In this document: one piece after another, positions 10,701 through 38,767 of the stretch
Layout of the letters: every line of letters begins with the position of its first letter
Numbering within the stretch: the first letter of the stretch is position 1
Assembly: GCA_017528205.1 (NCBI GenBank)
Contig: JAFXPE010000004.1
Coordinates: 15,079-79,078 of the forward strand
Length of the DNA stretch: 64,000 nucleotides
Direction of reading: 5' to 3'
DNA from: Alphaproteobacteria bacterium
GTDB taxonomy: Bacteria; Pseudomonadota; Alphaproteobacteria; RF32; CAG-239
The notes under the pieces: generated by a model
Databases searched by the model: none
The model's input: only the letters and a program-made list of their open reading frames with translations
What the model was told of the DNA's origin: nothing
Program-made: the position numbers and the translations under genes

Positions 10701-13700
10701 GCATTATCCATATTTTGCGGAACATCTCCGGCATCTTGCTGCTTTTGCTTTACTCCTCCCGAAAATGCAGCGGCGCCTTCAATATCAACTTTCTGATTAT
10801 AAGTAGTGGCATTAACGGCCAAATTTGTTGCCTCAATGTCAGAATTTTCTATGCTTGCTCTGACATTTCGGTCAATTGAGGTTGTGTTTACACTTGCGCC
10901 AACGGCTATGCCTGAAGAACTTTGTTCGCCGTCTTCAACCTCTTCTTTTTGTTGCGCCAAGGAACCCTGAACAATTATATTGGTGATTTCATCTTTAGCT
11001 TCTCTTGGATAGGTTATTGCGGGATCAACTTGCTGTTCTTTTTCCTCCGGAGTTAACTCTCTTTGTTGTTTCCACTTTATCTCATCGGTTTTATCATCTC
11101 TTTTGAGGTTTCCACCGGTTGTTCTAATGGTTGCTTTTCCGGCATTTACTTCAATATTATCGGCAACAACCGTATGGTTGTCTTTAATATTTGATATCTT
11201 GGCAATGGTATCTCCGCTGATTTTTTGAATATGAATAGAGCCGTCAACCCCGATTTTTTCCGATTTACCGCCGGTTATAATGATGTTCATATACGACTGC
11301 TCGGTTGCACTGTCAACGTTTATATTGCCCTCTTCGGCTTTAACCGTTGAGTTATCAATCATGGCTGTTGCATGATTGGTATAGTTATCAAACACAAAAT
11401 TGGCTCCGATACCGGCTTTGCCGCCCTCAACAGTCGGCTCATATTCCCAATCTTGTTGCCCCGGAAGTTTATAGTTGAGTTTTTTTATTAAAATATCAAC
11501 GAGTCCGGCGCCGTTATATCCGATAACCGAATTAACCGCATTAACAACAACATCGCCGTCTACCGTGATATCGGAATTGTTTTGAATGGCCGCTATGGTA
11601 TTGGTATTAACCTCGTTATACACCACCGCCGCCGAAGCCGATGCGGTGCCGCCAACCGAATTTGTTTGGGCAAGGTTATTAAAGAAACCCGCCATTTTGA
11701 ATTTCGGTTTCAGTCCGGAATAACTTGCTATAATATTTTGTTCGGCTAATCCGGATACTTCAAAAACAGGTGCTGTATCATCGGCTTTCGGTGTTGCCGG
11801 AGAAACGCTCCACTTTCCGTTAGCTTCGGAAGCAAATCTGCCGCCCACAAAAAAGCTGTCCATCCCCATAATCTTGAAAGGAAACCGCATTCCGAAAGTA
11901 AGACTTCCGACATTCATCGGCAGTTCGGTGGTTGCGTCGACCGTAACATTTTCCGCCTCAATTTTTGACTTATCGATAATCGCTTTTGTGGTATTGTTTT
12001 GTTCACTTAAAATAAGGGCAACCGAAACGCCGAACTTGGCCTCGCCTTGCGTATCCGATGTAGCGGTATTGGTAAGCAAATCAACCGCATTCGCTCTGAT
12101 GATTACATCACCGTCTGCCTTAACTTTAGAATTTTCAATGGTTGCGGTTGTATTATTATTGGTATTGTTGTGAACAACGGCACCGCCGAGTTCAAGCGCT
12201 GCATTGTCGCCTTCTTTGCCAACAACAGGTGTTTTGCCTTTTATTTTGTTGAATATATTAAGTTTGAAGAATTTACCTTGCAATTCCTTTAATTTTTTAT
12301 TCATTGCGGCATCAAAGGTTTTCGGTTTTTGCACCATCATATCAAGAACGCTGCCGTCGGGGGCGTTTTCGGTTTTATGCAAACTTTGCGCCAGAACGGT
12401 CGTATCTTCCGCGGTTGTAATTTCGCTGTCTTTTATACGAGCGGTTACGTTATTATTTGAACGATTTAATACAACGCCGGCCGAAGATGCACTGTTGGCG
12501 GCATCATCAGGTTTATTCGGGTCTTTTTCGCCGGCAACTGCTTCTATGGAAATTTCCGCGTAACTGTCGGATAAATTTGTGGCAAACACGCTCAAATTGT
12601 CAGCCTCAACCGTTGATTTTATGATTGATGCCTCGGTATCGGTTTTAACCGTATTGTTTAAGAACATCAAAAAGAAACCTTCTTCCAGCTTTATCGAAAA
12701 AAGGCTGTCCGAGGTGATAACCGTTGAATTTTCGTTTGTGGAAACGGCGGTTACATCAATATCGCCGTTAACAGCGTTCAAAACAGAATCTTTGACGATT
12801 GCTTTTGACACCGTTTCGGTGCCAACCGCGTAAATACCGACCGGCAATATAAAGGCCAGCAATCTGTTATTGGCATCTAAACTTGATGAAGCCTCGGTTG
12901 ATATTTCAATATTTTTAGCAGCATCTCCAACGGCATTAATGGTGGAACCTTCAACATTAACAATCGCCGAACTTTTGGCTCCCTCAAAATGTTTATAAAT
13001 CTCAGAACTGAAATATTCTGCAAAATAAGAATCTCCGCTGAATATGTAATCAATTATCGTCGGGGTTAAAAAGTTTGCATTTTCGCTGGTTTCACTTGAC
13101 GCTTCAGCATGAATGAAAACGGATAAATCAGGATTTTCCGCATCAGACGCGGTTGCTTTCAGGGCATTTATAATTGAATACCTTACATTTACTTCAGCTT
13201 CGGCTTTACCGGCCACTCCCCAAAGCGATGTTACCGGAGGGATATCGGAATCCGGCGATAAAACAAGATCTTCCAGAGTGTTGATAATAAATTCAACATC
13301 ATCAACCGGATTGGCGGCATCAAAATCCTTTTTCTGTGTGGCTGTTGCAACCAAAGAAACCGTATCTCCCGTTATATTGGAATTTACAACATTAACGCTG
13401 GCTTTTGCCAAATCCACTTTCTGTTGTCTGTCCACCTCTGAGTTTGCGGAAATATCAATTTCATTGGCAGCAATATCGGCCTGATTAATGTCCACTTTGG
13501 TTGTTAATTGTTTGTCATTTCCCGAATCAAAGCCATATCTTTTATTGGCTACAATCTTTATCTTTCCGCCTTCCAAGCTGAAACCGTCGGCATCGGTAAT
13601 ATTATTTGCTACCAAACTGTCAAAAACTTGTTTGGCTTGCTGCTGTGTCATAACCTTTTTTGGGTTCTTCACGCCGGCAACAATTCCGGCTCTGGAGCCG

Positions 13701-16161: not shown

Positions 16162-16875
16162 TTAATAGAACTTCCATTCTATTGAAGCAGTAGCCCCATT
16201 GGAACCCCTAGCGGTCTTACCGCAGCTAGAAGTCGCACTAGCCACAGAAACTGGAAAGCCTTTCGCTCCGTCGTTAGGTCCTTGATTTTTGTTAACCATG
16301 CAGTGAATACTTCCCCAGACTTCACTTTGACCTGTACACGCATTTACATATTTATTCGCCACAGAAACGGCTTTAGTCCTCGCAGCAATACTCATAGCAA
16401 TCAAACCACCGCTTTTAGTTGTTCCTCCCCAGTCAACCAAAGCCAATGCAATACATGCCTCAATCGGAATATCATCAAACGATATGTGGAATGCATCTTT
16501 ACGTGTTGTTTTTTTATAATTTTTCTCAGATGCATTGAAACGAACAGGTGTACCCCATGGAGTTTGATATGTATTTGTTCCGTTACCATCCTTGCTGGCA
16601 TACATATCATCCGGTACAATATTGAATTTATCAATAATTTTACCACCTATTCCCGTACCATCACCCAATGAAGAATAGTCTTTTGAGTTTCTGAAAGCCC
16701 TACGCATATTGCTGACAACTAGAGTGATTTGTTCAATCGCCTTATTGGTCTTATACCTATTCATAGCTTTAGAATAACCGGCAAGACCACCAACGGACAG
16801 TACACCGATAATAGCCAAAACGCCAAGCATCTCAATCATCGAACGACCTTGTTCTAAATTTTTATTATTAATCAT
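16162..16875 (-). CDS. Type IV pilin-like protein (prepilin-type N-terminal cleavage/methylation domain)
   Basis: The N-terminus QGRSMIEMLGVLAIIGVLSVGG matches the class III signal (G/xxxE followed by a hydrophobic helix) of type IV pilins and pseudopilins. The Gly/Thr/Ser-rich C-terminal half has Cys residues. Confidence 0.7.
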   Translation of the reverse strand: MINNKNLEQGRSMIEMLGVLAIIGVLSVGGLAGYSKAMNRYKTNKAIEQITLVVSNMRRAFRNSKDYSSLGDGTGIGGKIIDKFNIVPDDMYASKDGNGTNTYQTPWGTPVRFNASEKNYKKTTRKDAFHISFDDIPIEACIALALVDWGGTTKSGGLIAMSIAARTKAVSVANKYVNACTGQSEVWGSIHCMVNKNQGPNDGAKGFPVSVASATSSCGKTARGSNGATASIEWKFY

Positions 16876-18098: not shown

Positions 18099-18739
18099 TA
18101 CTTACATCTCTTTTTAATTTCGGCTTTGACTTTTTTCAAATCGCCGGAGGTCAAAAGCGGTATCAGTTCGTTGATTTCCTCAACGCTTTTATCCCACCAT
18201 TTGAATTTCAGTAGCAACTGTATCAATTCGTCATCAAATCTTTTGCGCACCGGTTTTGCCGGATTTCCGACCACAATCGTATATGGCTCGACATTGCTGC
18301 CGACCACACTGTTGGCACCGATTATTGCCCCATCGCCGATATGCACGCCGGGCAGAATTGTCACGTTTTGCCCTATCCACACGTCATTGCCGACAATCGT
18401 ATCGCCCTTAAGGGGTAAATCGGTCTCAGCCGGCGGCTCTTGTTCAAAATCTTCCATAATATAAAACGGAAACGTGGAAACGGCATTCATCTGATGATTG
18501 GCGCCGTTCATCACAAACTCAACCCCTGCCCCGATTTGGCAGAATTTGCCGATAATCAGCTTGTCGCCGATAAAATCATAGTGATGAGTGACGTGCTTTG
18601 CAAAATCAACATCGGCAAAATAGCTAAAATCCCCGACTATAATGTTCGGATTTTTCAGCGTCGGCTTGATATAGGTTACCGTTTTGATATTCGACACCGG
18701 AAAAATTGCATTCGGGTTAGGTTTCGTTGCCTTTGTCAT
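18098..18739 (-). CDS. Hexapeptide-repeat xenobiotic acetyltransferase (XAT family; Vat/CatB-like)
   Basis: Left-handed beta-helix hexapeptide repeats with a Vat/CatB-like N-terminus (...IKPTLKNPNIIVGDFSYFAD...GAGVEFVMNGANHQMNAVSTFPF...). The start was set to the internal ATG (MTKATKP), which overlaps the stop of the upstream kinase gene. Confidence 0.7.
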   Translation of the reverse strand: MTKATKPNPNAIFPVSNIKTVTYIKPTLKNPNIIVGDFSYFADVDFAKHVTHHYDFIGDKLIIGKFCQIGAGVEFVMNGANHQMNAVSTFPFYIMEDFEQEPPAETDLPLKGDTIVGNDVWIGQNVTILPGVHIGDGAIIGANSVVGSNVEPYTIVVGNPAKPVRKRFDDELIQLLLKFKWWDKSVEEINELIPLLTSGDLKKVKAEIKKRCK

Positions 18740-19254
18740 CAGAATTCTCCTATATCCAAGTTGTATTCTTCCTCTATCAAATGATACGGCAGTCCATGCT
18801 TTTGGCACTGTTGCAAAATGTGCTCGTTATCCTTTAGAGCCATATCTTGCGTAAAATCGCCATCATCCAGCCGCTTTTCGATAACGTTGGCATGGTTTTT
18901 GATGTCCGCAAAGCGATTTAAAATATAGTTTTGGCTCATAATCAGGCAAATGTATTTGATTTCCGCCAGATAATTTTCGCTAAAATCCTGCCGCCAAGCA
19001 AACGGAATATAACAGCCCTCAACGATTAGATTTTGCTTGTTTTCGATGGCGGTTTTAATCATTTCACGCACAATCGGCCACAAATAGTCCGTCAGCTTAT
19101 CATCATCAAGAGCGGTTAAGGCGGTCTGCTTGCTGCGGATCAGCCCCATTTTCAGCAAATCCAACGACAAGAGCGGAAAGTGATACTTTTCCAGCATTTT
19201 TTGTGCCAGCAAAGTCTTTCCCGTATGCGATGCCCCTGTGATTAAAATTATCAT
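18739..19254 (-). CDS. P-loop NTPase / small-molecule kinase-like protein
   Basis: An N-terminal Walker A (MIILITGASHTGKTLL). Its size and architecture resemble CPT/gluconate-kinase-like small kinases. It is first in a 4-gene overlapping operon with the XAT and GNAT genes. Confidence 0.5.
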   Translation of the reverse strand: MIILITGASHTGKTLLAQKMLEKYHFPLLSLDLLKMGLIRSKQTALTALDDDKLTDYLWPIVREMIKTAIENKQNLIVEGCYIPFAWRQDFSENYLAEIKYICLIMSQNYILNRFADIKNHANVIEKRLDDGDFTQDMALKDNEHILQQCQKHGLPYHLIEEEYNLDIGEF

Positions 19255-19343: not shown

Positions 19344-19994
19344 TCAGCGACTGACAAATGCTACGATTTCTTTTTGCAAGAGGCGGAACACATTGGCCAC
19401 CAGATATCCGTCGGCAATTGCGTGATTTAAGCGAACGCTCACCGGCATAACCAGTCTGCCGTTTTCTTCGCGATATCGTCCCCAGTTCACGATGGGCGCA
19501 AAGAACAAATAGCCGTCCGGCAACTCAATATTCAACGAATCATACGAAAGCCACGAAATGTATGAGGCATCAAACCAATTCGGATGATTTTCCATATCCA
19601 ACCCGTAATCACGCGTTTGCTTTGCCGTCTCCATATCTTTCAGCGCGCCGGCATAAAACGTGTCATAGTCCTCGTAATATTGCGTGTAAACCGGCGTACA
19701 GGTTTCCGTATCTTCATGAAATACATATTGCGTGGGGTTGACCATATCATAGCAGATAAGCTCGCCCGTCTGCCAAAGATAGCCCATGCGATAATCTTCA
19801 CGCGAATTCATTACTTTGGCAAGGATATACAGAAAATTCAAATAGAATTTCGAACTCGTCCGCTTTGACCAGGCTGCAAGCTCGGTCACATCTATTCTGG
19901 CAGTCATAGAAGTGGAGCATTTGCAGTCTTCCGAAAAGTGACGAAACACACCCTTGCGATAATACGTTTCTTTATCAATGACCTTGTAGTTCAT
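19344..19994 (-). CDS. cat: Chloramphenicol O-acetyltransferase, classic (type A) CAT fold
   Basis: Colinear similarity to CAT_I along the whole protein, including the catalytic-His region ...SVRLNHAIADGYLV... (compare MAIQVHHAVCDGFHV) and ...LFFAPIVNWGRY...; 216 aa. Confidence 0.8.
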   Translation of the reverse strand: MNYKVIDKETYYRKGVFRHFSEDCKCSTSMTARIDVTELAAWSKRTSSKFYLNFLYILAKVMNSREDYRMGYLWQTGELICYDMVNPTQYVFHEDTETCTPVYTQYYEDYDTFYAGALKDMETAKQTRDYGLDMENHPNWFDASYISWLSYDSLNIELPDGYLFFAPIVNWGRYREENGRLVMPVSVRLNHAIADGYLVANVFRLLQKEIVAFVSR

Positions 19995-22357: not shown

Positions 22358-22714
22358 ATGCTTAAAAATTTACTTCTGATGATGAAAAATAATAAAGCAA
22401 GAATATTTCCGTTTGCGGTCAGTTTATACCTATATGCCTTGTATTCTCGGTGTATATATCTGTTGGGTAAAGATATAATAAAGCGAATTAATGAGGATTA
22501 TTACAGTTATCTGTTGCATAAATGCCGGTGGTTGTGGGCAAACGAAAATGTTCGCAACGAAGCGGCTCTCGTTGTGTTGTTATCGGCCGTGCTTTTGCTT
22601 TCTTTTTATTTGCTCTATCGCAGAAGTTATTATTTTTACGCCGTAATATTGGCGCCGATATATATCTTTTTGTTTGTTACGGTTTGCAGCGCAATACTAG
22701 TACGTTGGTTTTAA
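22358..22714 (+). CDS. Small polytopic membrane protein (candidate immunity protein)
   Basis: 118 aa with 3-4 hydrophobic helices and no recognisable family. It lies directly downstream of the Tlde1-like gene. Confidence 0.4.
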   Translation: MLKNLLLMMKNNKARIFPFAVSLYLYALYSRCIYLLGKDIIKRINEDYYSYLLHKCRWLWANENVRNEAALVVLLSAVLLLSFYLLYRRSYYFYAVILAPIYIFLFVTVCSAILVRWF

Positions 22715-22723
22715 GGAGAAAAA

Positions 22724-23080
22724 ATGTCGGTCAAAGATTTATGTATTAAAATCATCAGAAACCGCAACAGAATAGCGGCTCATTTGTGTTTTTGGGGAAT
22801 GCTGTGTTTCAATTTATTATGTTTGAGTTTGACAATTTATACTATGTTCACCTATGACGGCGGAACGGAAGATGCGAAAGTTTATTATGAAATTCGTGAT
22901 ATAAATATGGCACACGATACATTTTCCGGTTTTATGTTGCGGGAATATTTATTAGGATTATTGTTTGCATTTCCTTTGCTTATATCCTTGCTGTTTGTGC
23001 GGAAAATTACATTAAATGCGGTTATGTTACAACTCTTGCCGATTTTAGTTATGCTCGGTCAAATAGTGTTTTTTGATTAA
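22724..23080 (+). CDS. Small polytopic membrane protein (candidate immunity protein)
   Basis: 118 aa and hydrophobic. An RBS (aggag) precedes the start. It is unrelated in sequence to the preceding one. Confidence 0.4.
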   Translation: MSVKDLCIKIIRNRNRIAAHLCFWGMLCFNLLCLSLTIYTMFTYDGGTEDAKVYYEIRDINMAHDTFSGFMLREYLLGLLFAFPLLISLLFVRKITLNAVMLQLLPILVMLGQIVFFD

Positions 23081-23104: not shown

Positions 23105-23677
23105 ATGGTAACAAAAGATAGAATATATATGACATTTAAATATCTCGGGTGTTTTCTTGCATGCAATATTTTATTGTGGGCCGTGATATGGCTCATTGCC
23201 GAATTAGACCAAGACAAACTTGAGCTGATTGATTGTTTTGCGTTTGAATACGGATACATTACAAAAACACTCAGTTATCAAAGTTATTTGCAAGGAGCTT
23301 GCACCTACCCTCAAATATGCACATGTGCCGTAAATGCCGAATGGATATTGTTTTTCTATATTTGGGCTTTGCCGATTTTTGTTTTTTATGAAGTTTTTCG
23401 GCGCAAAATCATTCTGCAACAATATCAATACTTGTGCGTTTTGGGCGAAATTGCTTTTGGGGTGGTTATATGTTTTTTATGCCAAGACAATGCACCCTTT
23501 TTATGGTTTCCGCTCGGTAATACTTACAAAATCATCGCACCGATGGCGATTATTATGCTTGCATTACACAGCTTGCCGCCCAAAGTGCTTAAAGTGCTGT
23601 CTATAATTATCGGCACGATTTACGGGTTATATTTTGGGTTTTGTATAGCAATGATTATTCTTAACTTTTTCCATTAA
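23105..23677 (+). CDS. Polytopic membrane protein, 190 aa
   Basis: Multiple predicted TM helices with Cys/aromatic-rich loops; no family assignable. Confidence 0.45.
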   Translation: MVTKDRIYMTFKYLGCFLACNILLWAVIWLIAELDQDKLELIDCFAFEYGYITKTLSYQSYLQGACTYPQICTCAVNAEWILFFYIWALPIFVFYEVFRRKIILQQYQYLCVLGEIAFGVVICFLCQDNAPFLWFPLGNTYKIIAPMAIIMLALHSLPPKVLKVLSIIIGTIYGLYFGFCIAMIILNFFH

Positions 23678-24613: not shown

Positions 24614-25126
24614 TCATTCTTGCGGCTCATTTTCATCATATTTTGGAGCTTCCGCCGCGGCCAGCAATTCATAAAAATACTCAATGTCCGCCTTGTTTAA
24701 CCCTGCCTCACACATAATGCTGTAATAGCCGGTTTCGGCGGCAAAGTTCACGACTTTATAGCTGTTATCTTCGCCCCTAACGCTGAATTTTACGCCGTTA
24801 TCCAGCGTAACCGTTGTGTTGACCGGATATTGATTGTAGTCGCCGGAAATGTCGATAATGCCGTTTTCATCGGCCTTGCCGGCAAAGTCTAAGGCCTTGC
24901 GGACAATAACCTTGCGCCCGTCATTCAGCGGAAAGCGCAACTCCAGCATGCCCTCCATCGCTCGAACCGTGTAGTTTTCAACCTTCAGCGGAAAGTCAAA
25001 TCCGGCTTTTTGCGCACCGCAACCGATGTCGTTTCCGCAATCAATCCACGGATTTATCATACTTTGCGCCGAATAAGCACTTAAAACGCCTATCGCCAAA
25101 CAAACTATACAAACAACTTTTTTCAT
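24614..25126 (-). CDS. Secreted protein / lipoprotein, unknown function
   Basis: N-terminal signal peptide (MKKVVCIVCLAIGVLSAYSAQS). No family recognised. Confidence 0.45.
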   Translation of the reverse strand: MKKVVCIVCLAIGVLSAYSAQSMINPWIDCGNDIGCGAQKAGFDFPLKVENYTVRAMEGMLELRFPLNDGRKVIVRKALDFAGKADENGIIDISGDYNQYPVNTTVTLDNGVKFSVRGEDNSYKVVNFAAETGYYSIMCEAGLNKADIEYFYELLAAAEAPKYDENEPQE

Positions 25127-25162: not shown

Positions 25163-26374
25163 TTAATTTTTCGGGAAAAATACCGAGTGCAACAAATTTA
25201 CGTCTTCCGGACTTCTGGTGATTTTTATTTTGCCCGATTTATAAATGTGGCAAACCACAAACGGAGCATATCCCCAAAATGTGGAATAAACATCGGTATA
25301 AGCACCAGCACCGCCGATTATTATATCATCGCCGATTTGTACCGGCTGACTGATATGTGTATTTTCAACAATGTTATTGGCACCGCTGGTGATGCCGTCC
25401 GTAATTCCGATATTTTCGCCCCCATCGCTCGGAAGCGGGTGCAAAAGTTCATAACGCGCGTTTTGGTTCGGAATAAGAACATTGGTGCCGATGTCCGTAA
25501 TCAGCCATTTTTTGTTTTTTATCTGTTTAATATCAATCACTTTACCCAAAACATATCCGGCGGAAGCGGATAAAAAACGCCCCGGTTCCAGCACCAATTT
25601 CTGAGGCGAGAACAGCTTGGCAAATTCATCTGCCACGGCGGTAAATAACTTCTTCAGTTTATCTTCACGGTTTGCGGAATAAACCTCAATGCCGCCGCCC
25701 AAGTCAATTCTTTGCGGCATAATAGCGTATTTTTGCTTTATGTCGGCCAAATGCTCTCGCAAAATTTTCATTGCCGCGATATAGGGTTCGGAACACAACT
25801 CGTTGATTGTAAAATGCATATGAACAATATCCCATTTTGCCCGTTTTTCATTTTGAATGAGCGCGATAAACTCTTTATAAACCTCTGAATCGACATAATT
25901 TCCCAGTTTATTTTTTTGGTTTGAATAAGGAGTGGCAACCTGCAATCCGCCGGCATCAAAACGCAACCTTATTCCCAATTGACAGCTTGCTTTAGGGTGT
26001 GCGGCCAAATAGTTTTTGACAATGCCCAAATCGCGCAATGTATCCACAATAAGCGTTGTGTTCTTTTGCTTTAGAGCCTTCATCAAACATGCCTCCGAAC
26101 GCCCTAAACCGTTGAGAATGATTTTTTTGAATTTGGCTCTCTGCGCCAAATCAAGCTCAAGCTCCGACATAACTTCCGCACCCAAACCGCGCCGCGCAAA
26201 ATAGCGCAACAAGTTGAGGTTATAACAACTCTTGACCGCAAAATAAATATCGGAATTTTTTAAATATTCGGATATCAGAGCAACTGCTTTTTCCGCCTCA
26301 TTCTCATCATAGAACATAACCGGTGTATTCAAGTTATGAGCAACAAGAAAGTTTTTTAAGGCCGAAATGTTCAT
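25163..26374 (-). CDS. PLP-dependent decarboxylase, fold type III (Orn/DAP/Arg decarboxylase family 2)
   Basis: PLP-lysine motif YFAVKSCYNLNLL, glycine-rich phosphate loop IDLGGGIEV, and the C-terminal EPGRFLSASAG motif. It overlaps the upstream Dcd-like gene by 4 nt. Confidence 0.75.
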   Translation of the reverse strand: MNISALKNFLVAHNLNTPVMFYDENEAEKAVALISEYLKNSDIYFAVKSCYNLNLLRYFARRGLGAEVMSELELDLAQRAKFKKIILNGLGRSEACLMKALKQKNTTLIVDTLRDLGIVKNYLAAHPKASCQLGIRLRFDAGGLQVATPYSNQKNKLGNYVDSEVYKEFIALIQNEKRAKWDIVHMHFTINELCSEPYIAAMKILREHLADIKQKYAIMPQRIDLGGGIEVYSANREDKLKKLFTAVADEFAKLFSPQKLVLEPGRFLSASAGYVLGKVIDIKQIKNKKWLITDIGTNVLIPNQNARYELLHPLPSDGGENIGITDGITSGANNIVENTHISQPVQIGDDIIIGGAGAYTDVYSTFWGYAPFVVCHIYKSGKIKITRSPEDVNLLHSVFFPKN

Positions 26375-26889
26375 TTAAAATCCTCACTTGTTTTTGAAAT
26401 TTGCGGCCCATGGCTGTGTTGATATTTGCCGTTGTACAACACAATTTCTCCCTTGGGAACCCAAAAGCTCACCTGAGCAATTTTCATACGCGGATATACA
26501 ATAACCGGCAAGGTTGAATATAATTGCAAGGTTAAGTTGCCCACCGAGCCGATATCAATTAAATCGGCCGTGATATGCACAAACAATCCCGAGCGCGCCG
26601 TTCCGGATTTTGCGTGCAATATCGGCACAAAATGTTCGCTGCCGATTTCTTCTACGGTGCTCCCCAAATAAAATTCGTTTTTTTCAATCAAAAAGCCTTC
26701 CGGAGGAATATCGATAATTTCAAAATTGGGCTTTTTCTTAGGATCCAGCACTTCGTCGGTATAGCGTATCAGTTTATCGGCCAGACAAACGTCATAAGAG
26801 TTGGTTGTGACCTGTTCTTCGTTAAACGGCGAAATAGTGATGTTGCCGTTTAAGGTTTCTTTGATTATTTCATTACCGCTCAAAATCAT
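26371..26889 (-). CDS. dCTP deaminase/dUTPase-fold protein, paralog 1 (predicted catalytic Glu replaced by Gln)
   Basis: Colinear with Dcd: MILSGNEIIKETLNGNITISPF...SYDVCL... and ...ARSGLFVHITADLIDIGSVGNLTLQLYS... (compare Dcd [26 protein letters not shown]). It is 172 aa. Confidence 0.7.
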   Translation of the reverse strand: MILSGNEIIKETLNGNITISPFNEEQVTTNSYDVCLADKLIRYTDEVLDPKKKPNFEIIDIPPEGFLIEKNEFYLGSTVEEIGSEHFVPILHAKSGTARSGLFVHITADLIDIGSVGNLTLQLYSTLPVIVYPRMKIAQVSFWVPKGEIVLYNGKYQHSHGPQISKTSEDFK

Positions 26890-27392
26890 AGCTTTTCAAC
26901 CTTCAATTGCTGTGTCGGGAGGTTATATTTGGCATAAGTAAAAGCATGCTCATATATTTCTCCGTAATTATCCCAAAACGTTACCTGCCCTATAATCATT
27001 CCCGCATACAACCGGATAGGTTTTGCGGCAACAAGTTCCAAGGTCCATTGGTGGAAAGACTTTGTATGCCCCAAATTTGCCGAAACTTGCAAAAACAGTC
27101 CCAAACGTCCCATAGAGCTACGCCCGATTAAAGACATGGCATATTTTTTGCTACCGATAATTTCTTTGGTGTGTCCTAAATATAAAACATGAGGCTTGAG
27201 AACATAACCTTCGGGCGGAATAGTCACATCTTCGAAAACCGGCTGACCGTCTTGCATTTTTTGAAAAACTTTGAGCATACTCCCCAAGCGATAATTATAA
27301 CTGTTGGGGTTGACTTGATTTTCATAAAAAGGTACCAGCGATATATTACCTTTTTTTTGCTCAGAAATTATTGCTTTTCCGGTCAGAATCAT
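26886..27392 (-). CDS. dCTP deaminase/dUTPase-fold protein, paralog 2 (Glu retained: ...WTLELV...)
   Basis: MILTGKAIISEQKKGNISLVPF...SYNYRLG... and ...GRLGLFLQVSANLGHTKSFHQWTLELV...; 168 aa. It overlaps both neighbours by 1-4 nt. Confidence 0.7.
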   Translation of the reverse strand: MILTGKAIISEQKKGNISLVPFYENQVNPNSYNYRLGSMLKVFQKMQDGQPVFEDVTIPPEGYVLKPHVLYLGHTKEIIGSKKYAMSLIGRSSMGRLGLFLQVSANLGHTKSFHQWTLELVAAKPIRLYAGMIIGQVTFWDNYGEIYEHAFTYAKYNLPTQQLKVEKL

Positions 27393-28198
27393 CAGAACAA
27401 TTCCACAAAACGATTAGGATAAACATTTTTACGATATCTTAAAACCAAAACGGCATAAGATTGATACGGACGCAATTTATTAGACATTTCTTTGATTTTA
27501 TACAATCTATCAAACATTGCCTGTTTCAGCGCAATATCGGTTATATTTCTGATTTTACAAGCACGGTCGATGGTGCAGCGGCAATAATATTGCAACTCGT
27601 CTTCCGTTTCCGGATACAAGTCATTCCGGTCCTCATAAATAATTTCCAGCTTGTTGAACATGGACATAATGTCTTTATATCCGGCCGTAGTTGGAGATAT
27701 ACCGAATACTGTCTTAAATTCTTCAATCAACTCGCCTGGTATCGGTTGTTTGATATAAAACGGAGAAGCCAATAAATATCCGCCGTCTTCGATAAATTCC
27801 ACCGTTTTTTTTATGGCTTCCTGCGGATTGGCAAAAAATTGATATCCTGCTCCTATGATAACATGTGAGAATTTTTCATCTAACTTGAGTTTGGTGCCGT
27901 CGGCAACAAAATAATCTATTTTTGCATTCGGCGCATAGTGCTGCAAATTATAATTTGCCATTTCTATTGCCTCAGACGATAAGTCAAACGCCTTGCCCGA
28001 GCATCCGGTAAGCGTGGCAAGTTCGCGAGATTGAAAACCGGTGGTGCAGGCAAATTGCAAAATTCGCGAATTGGCATTCATACGCGAAAAAGTTGCCCAT
28101 TTCGACAGAGTAACATACGATCCGGGTAAAACATTCCATTGATTAATATATCCGACAAAATCAGGATAAGACATTTCATTCAATTGCCTAATATCCAT
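27392..28198 (-). CDS. Class I SAM-dependent methyltransferase
   Basis: Motif I-like region ...VLQFACTTGFQSRELATLTGCSGKAFDLS... within a Rossmann-like pattern. The start was set at the internal ATG (MDIRQL) preceded by a GGGGAGA RBS. Confidence 0.6.
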   Translation of the reverse strand: MDIRQLNEMSYPDFVGYINQWNVLPGSYVTLSKWATFSRMNANSRILQFACTTGFQSRELATLTGCSGKAFDLSSEAIEMANYNLQHYAPNAKIDYFVADGTKLKLDEKFSHVIIGAGYQFFANPQEAIKKTVEFIEDGGYLLASPFYIKQPIPGELIEEFKTVFGISPTTAGYKDIMSMFNKLEIIYEDRNDLYPETEDELQYYCRCTIDRACKIRNITDIALKQAMFDRLYKIKEMSNKLRPYQSYAVLVLRYRKNVYPNRFVELF

Positions 28199-28342
28199 CT
28201 TTTTCTCCCCGTAAAAAAGCAAATTTACAATATTTCATCAGCACGTCTTATACCATTCATCATCGCAATTTTCAAGAATTTTTTCTTGATTTATTTAATT
28301 ATCCGTGATAGCTTGTTTTGTAATGTATTTTGGGGATAAAAT

Positions 28343-29284
28343 ATGCACAAAATTCAAAGAGTAAATTTCAATATTTTTCCTGAGAAACTGTTTGCGTTTG
28401 CAAAGTTTGACGAATTTTTGGTTGACGATACTTATTTATACCTCAGAACCTACGGGCACGAAGGAAAATATGAATTTGACAGCGCCATTTCTCCTTTTGA
28501 AAATATGATACAAGCCACAATACGCTTTATAAATTCGGTTCTGACGCCGGAGCGAATGCAATTGTTTGCCCAAACCGTAAATCCGTCGGCCATAATTTTA
28601 CCGGTTCACGGTTTTCATTATATCGGTTGTTCAAACAAAGTTTATACCTTTGAAACCGATAACACCAGCTCAAATTTAATGACCGTATTGACCACCATCA
28701 AACTTCATCATGCGCTGGGCATGGATTATTCTTTCAGCTGTCGACAGTTGGAAAAAGTTTCGCGCAATGCCTCGTCTTTAATTCATCGCATTGCCAACCC
28801 TACTCCGCTTGATGCCGATATTGTTAAGGGCAAAGAATATATTGCCTTTGATGACCATATCCATTCCGGCAGCACGGTGGCAAATTTGCTGGGAGTTATT
28901 GCGGCCAAGCAAGGCCAATGCAACACTATAATGTGTTTGGCCACCAATCCCATTGTTAAAAAACTGAAGTTGCGGCAATCCACATTGGATAAAATCAGAA
29001 CAAATCCGCTGTATTCTTCTTTAGAAAGCAAGTGGGCGGACTTATTCGGGTTTGATTTTGCGGGCTTAACCGAGGTTGAAGCGAAGTTACTGCTGAATAA
29101 CTACGTTAAAAAGAATATTGACGTTATCGCCGAAATCAAAAAATATAATCCGGCCGAATATGTCCCGACTTACGATAAATCCCTGTGGCCAGTTCTTACG
29201 GCCAAAGAAACTTATAACAGCCTGAGCGAACTCGGAATGCCCGGCTATGGAATTAAACTTATCAATACGGCACAAAAAATATGA
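28343..29284 (+). CDS. Hypothetical protein with a type-I phosphoribosyltransferase-like PRPP-binding motif
   Basis: ...KEYIAFDDHIHSGSTVANLLG... matches the hydrophobic-x4-D-D-x-x-x-S/T-G-x-T PRPP loop of type I PRTases. The rest of the protein is not classifiable by eye. Confidence 0.35.
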   Translation: MHKIQRVNFNIFPEKLFAFAKFDEFLVDDTYLYLRTYGHEGKYEFDSAISPFENMIQATIRFINSVLTPERMQLFAQTVNPSAIILPVHGFHYIGCSNKVYTFETDNTSSNLMTVLTTIKLHHALGMDYSFSCRQLEKVSRNASSLIHRIANPTPLDADIVKGKEYIAFDDHIHSGSTVANLLGVIAAKQGQCNTIMCLATNPIVKKLKLRQSTLDKIRTNPLYSSLESKWADLFGFDFAGLTEVEAKLLLNNYVKKNIDVIAEIKKYNPAEYVPTYDKSLWPVLTAKETYNSLSELGMPGYGIKLINTAQKI

Positions 29285-30057
29285 ATCACCGGCAACACAT
29301 AACCGATATTTTGAATGCTTACAGAAAGAAAAGTATTGTTCCCGACAGCAATTTTTCGGTTGCTTGCGTTATTGAAGACACCAACCGCAATCTTTACCCC
29401 GGCGCCAACATAGAATTTATCGACCGCACGCTCGGAATATGCGCCGAAGGAGCCGCTATTTGCAAAATGCTTGCGGAGCGCGGCTATCAGGTTATTCAAA
29501 ATATTTGGCTGATGGGAGGTGACGCTCAACCGGCCGCGGATATGCCGGAAGATATGCTTTTTCCTTGCGGCATCTGTCTGCAACGGCTGGGTGAATTGGC
29601 GGCAAAAGATGCGAAAGTAAAGATAATATCCCCTATCGATAATCATCTCACCGATTTCAATTTGAGTGATTTGTTACCTCATATCAATAAGTTTACCGAC
29701 TATTTTGATTTTAAACCTTATGATTTATGCGGAGAGCTTGATTTTAACGATATCCCCTCCGCGTTGCAAATGCTTAAGGCCAGAAGTTTTATTCCGGACC
29801 GTAAAAAAAACGAGGCGGTGATTTTGCAAACTCAAGGCAATCACTTTTGTTATGGCGTATATTTTGCAACCTGTTGCTACAAGGCCGATATTCCCGCCAT
29901 AAATATGGCCATGTATAATTATTTGTTGTCGGATTATGCGACGGAAAAAATCTCGCGGGTATATTATTCTGCCGAAAATTCTTTGTTGCAAATTCATCCG
30001 GAATTTTCTAAACTCTTAAAAGATGCGGTTTTGACGGAGATAAAAATTGAAAACTGA
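29281..30057 (+). CDS. Cytidine/deoxycytidylate-deaminase-fold (CDA) zinc enzyme, two-domain architecture
   Basis: Zinc-ligand motifs C-A-E (...RTLGICAEGAAICKM...) and P-C-x-x-C (...LFPCGICLQRLGEL...) in the N-terminal ~125 aa. A second degenerate CDA-like half follows, as in dimeric two-domain Cdd. It overlaps the upstream gene by 4 nt. Confidence 0.65.
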   Translation: MNHRQHITDILNAYRKKSIVPDSNFSVACVIEDTNRNLYPGANIEFIDRTLGICAEGAAICKMLAERGYQVIQNIWLMGGDAQPAADMPEDMLFPCGICLQRLGELAAKDAKVKIISPIDNHLTDFNLSDLLPHINKFTDYFDFKPYDLCGELDFNDIPSALQMLKARSFIPDRKKNEAVILQTQGNHFCYGVYFATCCYKADIPAINMAMYNYLLSDYATEKISRVYYSAENSLLQIHPEFSKLLKDAVLTEIKIEN

Positions 30058-30496
30058 GTGCAATGACATTTATTCTTTGATTTTATTTAAGCCCGATGTT
30101 TATTCGCGAAACCTCAGCGATGCCATTTTGCAAGAATTTCATAACAACGGTTTGGAAGTCGTTTATCATAAAAAAATGCAACTGACCGAAAAAATGTTAC
30201 GCGCCTATCAACCTTTGCTCAACGAGCCCGACGATTTTGGCGAAACGGCATGGCAGTATGACATTATAAACGCATATACCCGCGTGCCGACCGATGTTTT
30301 TTTGTTAAAAGGGCCGAATGCCCTTGAAAAAACCAATGAAATCAAACAATATTTGCGCGATAAGTATATTCCCGGCGAAAATAAGTATATCATCTATAAT
30401 TTGCTGCATACGGCTGATGATGCGGCTGATTTGGAACTTAATGTCGGTGTGCTTATTCCGGAAAAGCTGGATTTGCTTAAAAAAAGGAGAGATTGA
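30047..30496 (+). CDS. Divergent nucleoside-diphosphate-kinase (NDK)-fold protein
   Basis: ...LILFKPDVYSRNLSDAILQEF...GLEVV... (NDK: [25 protein letters not shown].LV) and an active-site-His-like motif ...YNLLHTADDAADLE... (NDK: NIIHGSDSVESAEKE). Confidence 0.55.
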   Translation: MKTECNDIYSLILFKPDVYSRNLSDAILQEFHNNGLEVVYHKKMQLTEKMLRAYQPLLNEPDDFGETAWQYDIINAYTRVPTDVFLLKGPNALEKTNEIKQYLRDKYIPGENKYIIYNLLHTADDAADLELNVGVLIPEKLDLLKKRRD

Positions 30497-30497
30497 G

Positions 30498-31505
30498 ATG
30501 GAAAATTACGAGAAAATCAAAGAAATAAGAGACAGTTTTCTGTCGTTTTATATGATGGCCGGATATAAGTGTGTTGATCCGGCGCCGCTCATTCCCGAAA
30601 ATGACGACACCATTTATTTTTCAAATTCCGCCATTGTGCCGTTCAAAAAATATTTGCAAACCGACTGTCCGAGACTGACCGTTGCGCAAAAGTGTTTACG
30701 CTTTAGGGGCGGCAAAAATTTGTATGATTTGAACGAGCACCCTTATGTGCCTTATTTTAATATGGTCGCCTCAATAACCAACGCCAAACATTGTCAAGAA
30801 GTTGCGGAATTAACGCAGGATTTTTTGTTAAACTCGTTGAATATTCCGGAAAATAAATTATATGCCGATGTTTCTTCTCAAGACCCGGTTATTATCAAAA
30901 ATTTTGAAAAATATTTTGATTTGCACGTTGATAAATTGGAGCAAGACGAATATCGTTGGGGTTTCGGCATAAACGGGGTACACGGCAGAGGGTTGTGCTT
31001 TTCCATGCGTTACGGCGACAACAAAACCGGAGATTTGGGGCAAATTATTCAAATTAACTCCGACAACAACAAAACCAACTATGCCTTTGGGTTCGGAATT
31101 GAAAAGTTTATAAAGATGTCCGAAAATCTTGACCATTTTTACGAAGCCACCTCTATTTACGAAATTACAAAAGATATCCAAGGGCCTTTGGCTTGGCGCT
31201 ATATGAGTTCGTTGTCGTCTTTGTGTTATTTATACAGTCAGAATATTGATTTTGAGGACCCGAAGCATAAAAAACAAAATAAAATTGTCTCGTCATTATT
31301 GCATCAGGTGGCGGTTGTTTCCGAGCTTATGGACATTCCGCTTTCTAAAATTAACGCCGATGCCTACAAATTTTCGATGGTTGAGCTGAACAAAAAAACA
31401 AACGTAGATGCCCTGTTGCGTGATATAAACAACAGAAAGCAAACAACGCGGCACGACAAAGAGTTTCAGCAAATCAGCCGACAATTATCGAGCAAGACGT
31501 ATTAG
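30498..31505 (+). CDS. Stand-alone alanyl-tRNA-synthetase catalytic-core paralog (class II aaRS-like amino-acid ligase, ~335 aa; no tRNA-binding, editing or C-Ala domains)
   Basis: Colinear with the AlaRS N-terminus: [44 protein letters not shown] ~ [63 protein letters not shown] ~ [36 protein letters not shown] ~ W..[26 protein letters not shown] ~ TGMGLERIAAVL. The start is set at MENYEKI, with an aaggaga RBS and a 1-nt gap after the NDK-like stop. Confidence 0.65.
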   Translation: [335 protein letters not shown]

Positions 31506-31748: not shown

Positions 31749-32165
31749 ATGAAGGAAATCAATATGTATAAATATTTAATTGCTCTTTTTGTTTGTTGTT
31801 TTGCGTTCAACGCCTCGGCCGCCACTTCGGAGATTTTGCAAAAATCGCAAAGTTCTTGGAACAACGCCCCGATTAAGCAGATGAATTTAACCGAGCCGGA
31901 AGTGACAGTTGTGCGTATTCAAATTCCGCAAGGCGAAAAATTGCCGCTGCATCAGCACCCGATTTTGAACGTCGGCTATCTGACCAAGGGCGAGTTGACC
32001 GTGCATACCGAAGCCGGCGATGTTTTGATTTTGAAGGCCGGAGATCCGATTATCGAGGTTATCGACACTTGGCACTACGGCGAAAGCACCGGCAATGAAG
32101 ATGCCGAAATCGTGGTGGTTTATGTGGGCAATAAGGGCGATACCTTTACCGAAACCAAAGAATAG
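31749..32165 (+). CDS. Secreted cupin-domain protein
   Basis: A signal peptide, then ...PQGEKLPLHQHPILNVGYLTKGELTVHTEAGDVLILKAGDPI..., which is a cupin two-His motif pattern. Confidence 0.5.
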   Translation: MKEINMYKYLIALFVCCFAFNASAATSEILQKSQSSWNNAPIKQMNLTEPEVTVVRIQIPQGEKLPLHQHPILNVGYLTKGELTVHTEAGDVLILKAGDPIIEVIDTWHYGESTGNEDAEIVVVYVGNKGDTFTETKE

Positions 32166-37376: not shown

Positions 37377-38459
37377 TTAAATTACAACAAAAAACCGCCG
37401 CAAAAGTTTTTGATAGGTTTCCAAATCATCAATGCTGATGTGTTCGTTTTCCGAATGAGCCTGCTCTATGCTTCCGCAACCGCACAAATAAACGTTTTGC
37501 CCGATTTCGGCCAAATATCCCGCCTCTGATGTGTAAGAAAGCTTTGTCGGCTTTATTTGCAGTTTGGCGCAAAAATCACTTATCTGCTTTTTATCATTGG
37601 CCTGATAACCCAAAAACTCGGCAGTTTTAATTGTTTCAATGCGCGCGGCCGGATATTGTTTGATGACGGCCGCAGTTTTTTGCTGATATTCTCGAACAAT
37701 TTTTTTTGCGCTTTCTTCACTTGTGTAGCGGAAACCCCATTCAATTTCCGCCTTGTCCGGAATTACGGCAATGTTGCCGCCGCCCGATAACGAGCCGACA
37801 TTTAAGTATATTTCATTCCCCAGAGCTTTTTGCGCAATCTTTTCCAGTTCTTGCACAATTTTCGCGGCAATAAACAAGGCGTTTATCCCCTTATTGGGCA
37901 CAGAAGAATGTGCGGATATACCATTAATAATCGTTTTATAGCTTTTTATCCCTGTGCTTTGAATCCCCAACTGATTGGCAGTCGGTTCGCCTAGAATTGT
38001 GAGCTGCGGCCGAATGTTTTGTTTTTGCAAAAAGGCGCACACGTCTTTAATGCCTTGCATTTCGCTTTCTTCGTCGCAGGTAAAACACAAAATTATCGGC
38101 ATTTTCAATGTATTAAAGTATGATATTAAATTTAAATAGCAAGCTATAGCACCTTTCATATCGGTTGTGCCGCGGCCATAGATTTTCCCGTCGGCAACAG
38201 TCGGCTTAAATTGCCCTGCTTTGCCGCCAACAACATCCAGATGACCGCAGAGCATAACTCCCGAGCGAATATCTTTCAACTCGGCAACGTTAAGTCCTAT
38301 AAGCAAATTATCCTTGCCGTTTGTCGGAATACATTGGATTATGCATTGCGGGCTTTGATGCCGAATGTAGTCTTTGATATATTGCACACATTGCAGATGA
38401 TTGGCAGCATTTCCGTCGGTTTTTAGGGAAATCAGGTCGTTTAATATCTTATGCAACAT
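37377..38459 (-). CDS. M20-family metallopeptidase/deacylase (ArgE/DapE-like)
   Basis: ...LCGHLDVV...GRGTTDMKG...E..E motif order of M20. The start was set to the internal ATG (MLHKILND), with an aaggagag RBS, rather than the longer ORF. Confidence 0.7.
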   Translation of the reverse strand: MLHKILNDLISLKTDGNAANHLQCVQYIKDYIRHQSPQCIIQCIPTNGKDNLLIGLNVAELKDIRSGVMLCGHLDVVGGKAGQFKPTVADGKIYGRGTTDMKGAIACYLNLISYFNTLKMPIILCFTCDEESEMQGIKDVCAFLQKQNIRPQLTILGEPTANQLGIQSTGIKSYKTIINGISAHSSVPNKGINALFIAAKIVQELEKIAQKALGNEIYLNVGSLSGGGNIAVIPDKAEIEWGFRYTSEESAKKIVREYQQKTAAVIKQYPAARIETIKTAEFLGYQANDKKQISDFCAKLQIKPTKLSYTSEAGYLAEIGQNVYLCGCGSIEQAHSENEHISIDDLETYQKLLRRFFVVI

Positions 38460-38767
38460 TTTTCTCTCCTTAAAGTTAAAATCAAAACCAACCTTTAAAG
38501 AGAGCAAAAAATAAACCCATCGATAACGACAGGCTCTGAAATTCGCCCATCGTTCAAGCTTTAGCACCGTGCATTTTGTCGGTTGCTGTGTGGTCAAAGG
38601 GCTTGTCCCTCGCACACTCTTTATAGGTTGCTTGCAATTTACAACAGAATTTTTCTTTTTTCAAGCAAAATCGGCCGAATTGTTGTCTGATTACGGCATC
38701 ACTTCATGATATTATAAAACCGCCGCAAAAGTTACGGCGGTTGTTATAAATTCTGCTCGTTTTCCGC

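Follow-up and report, generated by a model that had tools for sequence, protein, structure and literature searches.

The 64-kb window analysed here, a stretch of contig JAFXPE010000004.1 from an Alphaproteobacteria bacterium, contains at positions 25163–31505 a cluster of eight tightly packed open reading frames (ORFs), arranged as two divergent operons, which on balance appears to make a small aminoacyl-nucleotide antimetabolite belonging to the functional class of processed microcin C, agrocin 84 and ascamycin. These three compounds are stable aminoacyl-adenylate mimics that poison aminoacyl-tRNA synthetases (aaRSs), and the product of the cluster is probably likewise an aaRS inhibitor. The minus-strand operon encodes a homolog of the microcin C enzyme MccD, two paralogs with the dCTP-deaminase fold, hereafter Dcd-A and Dcd-B, and a fold-III pyridoxal phosphate (PLP)-dependent decarboxylase; the plus-strand operon encodes proteins of phosphoribosyltransferase (PRTase), cytidine deaminase (CDA) and nucleoside diphosphate kinase (NDK) fold, followed by AlaL, a truncated paralog of alanyl-tRNA synthetase (AlaRS). 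The spacing between neighbouring genes is −4, −4 and −1 nt in the minus-strand operon and −4, −11 and +1 nt in the plus-strand operon, and all eight ORFs lie where an earlier description based on the DNA letters alone (the sequence-only reading) had placed them. Its eight fold assignments were borne out by profile and structure searches, and its general logic, in which an amino-acid-derived group is joined to a pyrimidine nucleotide with a decarboxylation step, is supported; among the alternatives it offered, a cytosine-type nucleoside metabolite pathway comes closest to the present evidence.

The product of 27392–28198 matches the structure of MccD (PDB 5FCD) over its full length with an E value of 8e-29, the next PDB match reaching only 0.02, and shares 28% identity with MccD of the E. 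coli mcc plasmids and 27% with AgnB1 of pAgK84. Where the sequence-only reading saw a methylation step, this specific homology points to a different reaction of a S-adenosylmethionine (SAM)-dependent enzyme, and the protein is probably a 3-amino-3-carboxypropyl transferase rather than a methyltransferase. In the microcin C pathway, the phosphate of the peptidyl-nucleotide is reported to receive a 3-amino-3-carboxypropyl group that MccD takes from SAM; MccE then acts through its N-terminal PLP decarboxylase domain (MccE1) to leave an aminopropyl moiety, and the S66 peptidase MccF renders the compound harmless by hydrolysing the amide of the aminoacyl-nucleotide (PMC8323819; PMC10491745). The decarboxylase encoded in the window is 26% identical over 290 residues to the N-terminal domain of E. 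coli MccE, and its score against the NCBIfam lysA profile (134 bits, with a cut-off of 298) shows that it is not LysA. Judged by these similarities, it and the MccD homolog look like an MccD/MccE aminopropylation pair.

The aminoacyl group itself would be installed by AlaL. The predicted structure of this protein (mean pLDDT 89) matches the catalytic fragment of AlaRS (PDB 1riq) in Foldseek with an E value of 6e-15 and a TM-score of 0.74, the superposition taking in both the class II catalytic core and the helical domain of about 100 residues that follows it, while editing and C-Ala domains are absent. The earlier description of an AlaRS homolog devoid of all tRNA-handling domains is thus not supported. 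Residues were mapped onto E. coli AlaRS with an alignment of 54 family members, which is of low identity (a 13-sequence MAFFT alignment and a global hhalign comparison misaligned the second half of the protein, and the 54-member alignment was used in their place). The motif-2 Arg (E. coli R69) is kept in AlaL and in all 54 sequences, and E209 corresponds to Asp in AlaL and to Asp or Glu in 44 of the 54. At the position of N212, AlaL has Gln (Asn in 33, Gln in 14 and Lys in 6 family members); D235 is replaced by Ala (Glu in 26, Ala in 13, Asp in 13) and the motif-3 Arg by Lys (Thr in 23, Lys in 13, Arg in 11).

This pattern recalls AcmF of the ascamycin pathway, a truncated AlaRS-like enzyme which is reported to carry the substitutions N219Q and D232E and to be incapable of activating alanine; instead, it passes alanine from Ala-tRNA to a nucleoside sulfamate, the Ala-tRNA being supplied by the AlaRS AcmD and the transfer being reversed by the hydrolase AcmE (PMC12945691). 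Set against this published description, AlaL matches the Asn-to-Gln change and has Ala where AcmF has its Asp-to-Glu change, the Glu being found in most AlaL relatives. The sequence-only reading regarded the AlaRS core as a former of aminoacyl-AMP; the three substitutions at Asn212, Asp235 and the motif-3 Arg seem to fit a tRNA-dependent transferase of the AcmF kind better, and AlaL is proposed to be an AcmF-like aminoacyl transferase.

A variant of the scheme with the same class of product would make AlaL an adenylate-forming enzyme, which binds an amino acid or amide together with a nucleoside triphosphate and forms the aminoacyl-nucleotide or phosphoramide bond without tRNA, as has been proposed for AgnA of agrocin 84 biosynthesis (PMC8323819). 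Retention of the motif-2 Arg in every family member, an acidic residue at the E209 position and the conservative replacement of the motif-3 Arg by Lys in the window are compatible with such an activity, as is the result of a search for dedicated tRNA genes inside the clusters, none of which contains one. The variant nevertheless seems unlikely: Gln and Ala occupy the positions of Asn212 and Asp235 in the window, most relatives have Thr, Ser or Ala in place of the motif-3 Arg, AcmF with the same Asn-to-Gln change is reported to be unable to activate alanine and to depend on Ala-tRNA (PMC12945691), and canonical AlaRS, LeuRS or LysRS genes beside many relatives of the cluster could supply aminoacyl-tRNA.

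Dcd-A and Dcd-B are 38% identical to each other, and the nearest solved structures of both are the enzymes of M. tuberculosis and M. jannaschii. Dcd-A scores 54.2 against the dCTP deaminase profile TIGR02274, whose cut-off is 92.8, and keeps the catalytic Glu (in the motif TLEL) and the GRSSxGRLGL motif but has no IDPG motif. Dcd-B scores 98.4, just above the same cut-off, and both an IDxG motif and the C-terminal lid (KYQ..GP) are kept; alignment with M. tuberculosis Dcd reveals LTLQL for TLEL, so that Gln stands in place of the catalytic Glu, and this Gln is invariant in 21 of 21 diverse aligned members of the subfamily. If a dCTP deaminase is recognised by a score over the cut-off together with the catalytic Glu, neither protein is one. 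With Dcd active sites lying at subunit interfaces, the complementary motifs of the two paralogs suggest an obligate heteromer.

The score of Dcd-B is also the point that speaks for a trivial explanation, namely that ordinary genes of pyrimidine salvage and of lysine or polyamine metabolism have become neighbours by chance. This we regard as extremely improbable, since Dcd-B is without the catalytic Glu, all other equivalog scores are far below their cut-offs (29 bits against 155 for ndk and at best 72 against 114 for cdd, in addition to the lysA score given above), gene order is kept across distant lineages and the AlaL gene occurs in only 2 of 185,579 species genomes, those of an uncultured rumen proteobacterium and of Alphaproteobacteria bacterium UBA7488. 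The earlier judgement that none of the genes is a housekeeping copy is therefore upheld.

At E ≤ 1e-10 the Dcd-B subfamily comprises 596 clusters, with about 60% identity between members from different phyla, and a metagenome scan returned at least 412 relatives, the best 80 loci of which were analysed. Thirty-six of these have at least 3.5 kb on both sides and are referred to as well flanked; the counted loci include several near-duplicates, and the counts are therefore not independent. Dcd-A adjoins Dcd-B in 76 of the 80 loci and in all 36 well-flanked ones. Among the latter, an MccD-like gene is found in 25 (it lies directly upstream of the pair in most Dcd-pair loci), a truncated aaRS paralog in 29 (16 of AlaRS type and 14 of Asp/Lys/Asn type), an S66 peptidase in 18 and a fold-III decarboxylase in 13. 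An additional aaRS gene, assigned by Pfam to LeuRS, class I LysRS or a PheRS-alpha-like protein, is present in 17. Over the wider set, extra aaRS copies occur in 22 related Dcd-pair loci and the wider AlaL family is represented in 36 of the 80. By analogy, the extra aaRS genes may be resistance copies like AgnB2 or dedicated suppliers of aminoacyl-tRNA like AcmD, and either role fits.

The close family of AlaL is much smaller, with only 13 clusters among 5.8 billion proteins, and its neighbourhoods fall into two groups, at 57–99% (group 1) and 45–51% identity (group 2). An identical copy of the whole cluster is present on an independent assembly (L001), and the same genes in the same order, at 55–90% protein identity, occur on the unrelated contigs L003, L008, L015, L019, L108 and L109, a recurrence which shows that the arrangement is not due to chance and agrees with the earlier view of a conserved, accessory unit. 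Within group 1, L003, L015 and L019 have a co-linear six-gene form (methyltransferase-like gene, Dcd-A, Dcd-B, decarboxylase, S66 peptidase, AlaL), and L008 has the divergent form of the window with an S66 peptidase gene inserted ahead of AlaL. The closest relatives of the PRTase/CDA/NDK arm of the window are found in L108 and L109, which carry AlaL together with an S66 peptidase and a canonical AlaRS catalytic fragment that is 39–40% identical to E. coli AlaRS and has every key residue intact.

Group 2 (L004–L007 and L011–L014) has no Dcd pair; its AlaL genes are flanked by genes for a CmoA-like carboxy-SAM (cxSAM) synthase, a second methyltransferase, a B12-radical SAM protein, a 180-residue protein, a MoaA-like radical SAM protein, an S51 peptidase and a GNAT/NUDIX protein. 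The synthase, of CmoA/MccS type, scores 154 bits and, together with the GNAT/NUDIX protein, echoes the tailoring and immunity genes of mcc systems.

Peptidases recur next to AlaL in both groups. S66 genes adjoin it in L003, L008, L015, L019, L108 and L109, and the S66 protein of L008 matches the MccF-like structure of B. anthracis (Ba3275) with an E value of 2e-92 and MccF itself with 1e-18. The window and group 2 have an S51 peptidase instead: homologs 35–36% identical to that of the window flank AlaL in L004–L007, L011 and L012, and one further homolog adjoins an AlaL-type gene in L065. From this recurrence, the S51 protein of the window is a probable member of the system, acting as a hydrolase or immunity component that stands in for an MccF-like S66 peptidase.

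Two features of individual group 1 loci deserve mention. In L015 (positions 568–2064), as in L016 and L017, all that is left of the MccD-like gene is the part for its last ~55 residues, joined in frame to a type III-like N6_N4 DNA methyltransferase gene, beside intact Dcd-A, Dcd-B, decarboxylase, S66 peptidase and AlaL genes; that the DNA methyltransferase replaces the MccD-like gene functionally was considered and rejected, the in-frame fusion to a remnant resembling a deletion scar. The six-gene form of L003 is bracketed by tRNA-Gly and tRNA-Pro genes (5439–5512 and 11262–11338) and the cluster of L019 is followed by a tRNA-Glu gene (11226–11300), which is consistent with insertion of islands at tRNA loci.

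Comparison with the three known systems places the cluster among them without making it orthologous to any. Like microcin C clusters, the window combines a specific MccD homolog with a nearby fold-III decarboxylase resembling the N-terminal domain of MccE, and sister loci add an MccF-type S66 peptidase, or, in AlaL group 2, the MccS/CmoA-like cxSAM synthase and an Acetyltransf_3 GNAT protein. Unlike them, it contains no MccB ThiF-like nucleotidyltransferase, MccA precursor peptide or MccC exporter: no ThiF domain occurs in the eight proteins, E. coli MccB has no tblastn match in the 64-kb window and no blastp match in 83 related loci, and MccC has no match in the window. The bond-forming enzyme is an AlaRS paralog in place of MccB, and the MccD-like gene is separated from the decarboxylase gene by the Dcd pair. 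The product should therefore not be a ribosomal peptide-nucleotide.

On pAgK84, agnA, which encodes a truncated class II aaRS core of 353 residues, directly precedes the MccD-like agnB1, and the plasmid also encodes the resistant LeuRS AgnB2, the MccF-like AgnC5, a radical SAM enzyme and NUDIX proteins; LeuRS copies are found in related Dcd-pair cassettes as well. AgnA has been proposed to form a phosphoramide bond (PMC8323819). It derives, however, from the Asp/Lys/Asn-RS lineage (PF00152), whereas AlaL derives from that of AlaRS (PF01411), and BLAST aligns only 10 residues of motif 3 between them; with class II motif 3 as the only common ground, the two designs are analogous and not orthologous. 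Moreover, the agn region examined has neither a Dcd pair nor a fold-III decarboxylase, and the window has no extra aaRS gene.

The ascamycin enzymes offer a parallel for AlaL, which, like AcmF, consists of an AlaRS-like catalytic core and helical domain and is accompanied in L108 and L109 by a canonical AlaRS fragment and a hydrolase, an ensemble resembling AcmF, AcmD and AcmE. The hosts of the cluster are Proteobacteria and uncultured lineages, not Streptomyces, and genes for forming a sulfamate are missing from the cluster, which rules out a sulfamoyl nucleoside as acceptor. As for the Dcd pair, it shares its fold and most of its motifs with Dcd and Dcd:dut enzymes, but it consists of two always-adjacent paralogs in clusters that look like those of secondary metabolism, not of lone housekeeping genes. 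While the modules thus have clear counterparts (MccD/MccE/MccF, AgnA/AgnB1/AgnC5 and AcmD/AcmE/AcmF), which qualifies the earlier statement that no described system with such a set of genes was known, the literature library searched, which is incomplete, contains no account of precisely this set; nor did that library yield a description of a Dcd pair in such clusters or of an AlaRS-like enzyme outside ascamycin biosynthesis.

These elements can be assembled into a tentative pathway. The Dcd-A/Dcd-B heteromer, in which Dcd-A would contribute the Ser/Arg loop and the catalytic Glu, and Dcd-B the IDxG motif and the C-terminal lid, would convert a cytosine (deoxy)nucleoside triphosphate to its uracil or monophosphate form as a scaffold, with the PRTase-, CDA- and NDK-like proteins feeding or recycling pyrimidine nucleotides. 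The MccD homolog would then transfer 3-amino-3-carboxypropyl from SAM to the nucleotide, a step for which the homology is established and the chemistry presumed (the acceptor in microcin C being the phosphate), and the fold-III decarboxylase would convert the transferred group to aminopropyl. AlaL would place an aminoacyl residue on an amine of the nucleotide intermediate, giving a hydrolysis-resistant amide; this residue is probably alanyl and would come from aminoacyl-tRNA, as with AcmF, and either a phosphoramidate-type nitrogen or the new aminopropyl or aminocarboxypropyl amine could accept it. Cleavage of this amide by the downstream S51 peptidase, or by the MccF-like S66 peptidase in sister loci, would protect the producer. 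In a minimal form with six core proteins, the Dcd pair would deliver a nucleoside monophosphate, the MccD-like enzyme would add aminocarboxypropyl to its phosphate, the decarboxylase would trim it and AlaL would acylate the new amine.

The enzyme set also invites comparison with pathways that modify nucleic acids, in which an aminoalkyl or aminoacyl group would be placed on DNA pyrimidines, as in the phage thymidine hypermodification pathways invoked in the sequence-only reading, or on tRNA. Amino-acid handling, a PLP decarboxylase and a Dcd-type supply of dUTP would suit such a pathway, an AlaRS fold could bind tRNA, and RNA, too, can receive a 3-amino-3-carboxypropyl group from SAM (a topic covered in PMC10491745). 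The phage analogy is not supported by the searches: 2.9 million viral contigs contain no relative of AlaL or of the Dcd-B subfamily, and the region has no megablast match among plasmid or phage records. No enzyme acting on DNA is encoded, and a thymidylate-synthase-like hydroxymethylase, a DNA kinase, a glycosylase and a DNA transferase are all missing from the eight proteins. With the DNA methyltransferase fusion of L015–L017 being an apparent deletion scar rather than a functional link, modification of nucleic acids is a very improbable role for the cluster.

Several observations weigh against an antimetabolite pathway of the kind outlined above. We infer every chemical step, and the role assigned to the Dcd pair is a guess; no enzyme is evident in the cluster that would make an N–P or sulfamate-type nucleophile, as a phosphoramidate-type acceptor would demand. 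Against the lysA profile the decarboxylase reaches a higher score than in pairwise comparison with MccE, its likeness to MccE holds at the family level only, and AlaL has Ala and not Glu at the Asp235 position, in a comparison with AcmF made through its description. An interval of 243 bp and the gene of a secreted cupin stand between AlaL and the S51 gene. Beyond AlaL, the 64-kb window contains no extra aaRS gene (LeuRS or canonical AlaRS), and it contains no S66 gene; an exporter gene, which mcc (MccC) and agn (AgnG) systems possess, is found neither in or beside the window cluster nor in its closest relatives. Finally, several related loci have restriction-modification, Cas9 or prophage genes nearby, group 2 loci adjoining Type III restriction-modification and SNF2 genes and L007 phage tail genes, and the PRTase-like protein belongs to a clade typical of conflict proteins of phages and conjugative elements.

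These neighbourhoods and the PRTase clade keep a defence role a live rival, in which an intracellular or abortive-infection module would make or deplete a pyrimidine nucleotide upon phage attack and the product would never be exported. The lack of an exporter in the cluster would then be expected, and the accessory region of the window, with its type VI secretion system (T6SS)-type effector and resistance gene, would be a fitting location. We consider such a role rather unlikely, in view of the absence of any sensor or effector architecture and of relevant matches in PADLOC, where seven of the eight proteins have no match and the eighth has one weak, irrelevant match to Cas8 (E 8.5e-4). The specific parallels of the cluster are, moreover, with antibiotic pathways (MccD, MccF, AgnA/AgnB1 and AcmF), and extra aaRS copies such as those in related cassettes are typical of producers of aaRS inhibitors.

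The PRTase-like protein is an accessory component, present in only one sub-branch of the cluster family. ComF is its closest structure. Outside the cluster, the sequences nearest to it are PRTase domains that form part of large polyvalent proteins or of MuF fusions; the central PRTase domain itself (residues ~105–252) has 359 remote relatives, many of them in polyvalent proteins of 2000–5000 residues or in fusions to phage MuF. The function of the PRTase clade of polyvalent proteins has been called enigmatic (PMC5512222). In contrast to ComFC and these polyvalent proteins, the protein of the window stands alone, has additional N- and C-terminal regions and is translationally coupled to the CDA- and NDK-like proteins. 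The first of these has intact zinc motifs, CAE and PCxxC, in its N-terminal domain (CAEGAA and PCGIC), and its nearest solved relatives are ordinary tetrameric Cdd enzymes, that of B. subtilis being the closest; an immunity protein of the blasticidin-S-deaminase type was also considered. The NDK-like protein is 70–73% identical to the copies in L008 and L018, and the His of its LLHTAD motif aligns by eye with the catalytic His of NDK.

Aminoacyl-tRNA synthetase inhibitors are validated antibacterials, and few pathways to natural aminoacyl-nucleotide mimics are known, those of microcin C, agrocin 84, albomycin and ascamycin. It is conceivable, though we put it forward as a speculation less likely to be right than wrong, that the cassette of MccD-like enzyme, Dcd-A, Dcd-B and truncated aaRS defines a large new family of nucleotide antibiotics, with hundreds of loci from candidate phyla radiation (CPR) bacteria to Streptomyces. 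Its Dcd heteromer would have a chemistry beyond deamination, for example in building the nucleotide acceptor, and a tRNA-dependent AlaRS paralog would install the aminoacyl warhead, giving a route to aaRS inhibitors independent of MccB; the window would hold a gut or rumen alphaproteobacterial version to which a PRTase/CDA/NDK supply arm has been added. If the antimetabolite reading as such is right, the known pathways would be joined by a widespread set of clusters from rumen and gut Proteobacteria, rhizobial and Streptomyces plasmids and candidate-phyla bacteria, in which the logic of MccD, MccE and MccF is reused without a ribosomal peptide. Two types of enzyme that so far have no assigned role in secondary metabolism would be added, an obligate pair of Dcd-fold proteins and AlaRS-derived transferases outside actinomycetes. 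The clusters would offer clonable units of six to nine genes for compound discovery, with the LeuRS, LysRS and AlaRS copies of relatives predicting the targets.

Individual Dcd-pair loci illustrate this variety. On a plasmid-like contig of Wohlfahrtiimonas, a methyltransferase, Dcd-A, Dcd-B, an ATP-grasp protein, an AlaRS-like protein and LeuRS are encoded together. In Actinoalloteichus, the pair lies between a P450 gene and genes for a class II aaRS-like protein and two methyltransferases, with a class I LysRS gene opposite. Plasmid pRetMIM1e of Rhizobium etli (L110) carries the pair, and so does a plasmid of Streptomyces sp. NBC_00239 (L111), where it is accompanied by glycosyltransferases, an aaRS-related protein, a HIT protein and radical SAM enzymes. 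The last two loci, together with L026 and L027 from Staskawiczbacteria, represent glycosyltransferase-rich clusters with recurrent PIG-L, WbqC and radical SAM proteins and a metallophosphoesterase, to which single loci add an aaRS-related protein, a HIT protein, an Erm-like methyltransferase or a NUDIX protein; these clusters may direct the synthesis of a different family of nucleoside products.

The positions of the genes of the cluster and of other features of the window are collected in Table 1.

Table 1 Cluster genes and surrounding features of the 64-kb window
Feature	Position	Strand	Evidence or remark
ORF of 4205 aa	1739–14356	−	no Pfam domain at E ≤ 0.001
Bundlin-like type IV pilin	16162–16875
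AAA_33 kinase-like protein	18739–19254
Chloramphenicol acetyltransferase	19344–19994
Tlde1/YkuD-like effector, 385 aa	21110–22267		C-terminal YkuD/Tlde1-like domain
Small, very hydrophobic ORF	22358–22714
Small, very hydrophobic ORF	22724–23080
Small, very hydrophobic ORF	23105–23677
Protein of 170 aa with lipoprotein-like signal sequence	24614–25126	−	no family match
Fold-III PLP-dependent decarboxylase, 403 aa	25163–26374	−	Pfam Orn_Arg_deC_N 3e-20
Dcd-B, dCTP-deaminase fold, 172 aa	26371–26889	−	Pfam DCD 1e-33
Dcd-A, dCTP-deaminase fold, 168 aa	26886–27392	−	Pfam DCD 2e-27
MccD-family SAM-dependent transferase (class I), 268 aa	27392–28198	−	ATG start, as called on identical contig L001
Divergent intergenic spacer, 144 bp	28199–28342	.	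71.5% A+T
PRTase-fold protein, 313 aa	28343–29284	+	ComFC / mobile-element PRTase clade
Two-domain cytidine-deaminase-family protein (CDA-like), 258 aa	29281–30057	+	Pfam dCMP_cyt_deam_1 1e-10, dCMP_cyt_deam_2 3e-7
Divergent NDK-fold protein, 149 aa	30047–30496	+	TTG start; Pfam NDK 35 bits, cut-off 27
AlaL, truncated AlaRS paralog, 335 aa	30498–31505	+	Pfam tRNA-synt_2c 3e-18 over first 167 profile positions
Cupin_2 protein, signal-peptide-like N-terminus, between AlaL and S51	31749–32165	+	Pfam Cupin_2 4.5e-11
S51-family serine peptidase, 238 aa	32193–32909	+	Pfam Peptidase_S51 9e-39
M20-peptidase ORF	37377–38615		listed with GTG start
SAM (S-box) riboswitch	38514–38629	−	Rfam, 65 bits

The space between the divergent operons, described earlier as a control region of 120 bp, is somewhat longer and is presumed to carry the promoters of both. 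This control function is deduced from position only, as a consensus scan of the region returned no strong sigma-70 match, and neither the spacer nor the sequence after AlaL contains a convincing promoter or terminator. AlaL is taken to start as in Table 1, a longer AlaRS-like ORF from 30318 being an artefact of ORF listing. The Cupin_2 protein is found only on the identical contig L001 and in no other variant of the cluster, and is probably not part of the system. Likewise restricted to L001 is the 170-residue protein encoded 37 nt downstream of the decarboxylase gene on the same strand.

The surroundings of the cluster are of accessory character, as had been noted from the sequence. The YkuD/Tlde1-like domain of the effector is typical of T6SS L,D-transpeptidase effectors, and the three small hydrophobic ORFs that follow it could encode immunity proteins; the bundlin-like pilin, the AAA_33 kinase-like protein and the chloramphenicol acetyltransferase add further accessory and resistance content, upstream of which lies the 4205-residue ORF. 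Rfam and tRNA scans of the window returned no tRNA and a single RNA element, the SAM riboswitch, which lies far from the cluster. This riboswitch overlaps the listed start of the M20-peptidase ORF, whose true start must therefore be further downstream.

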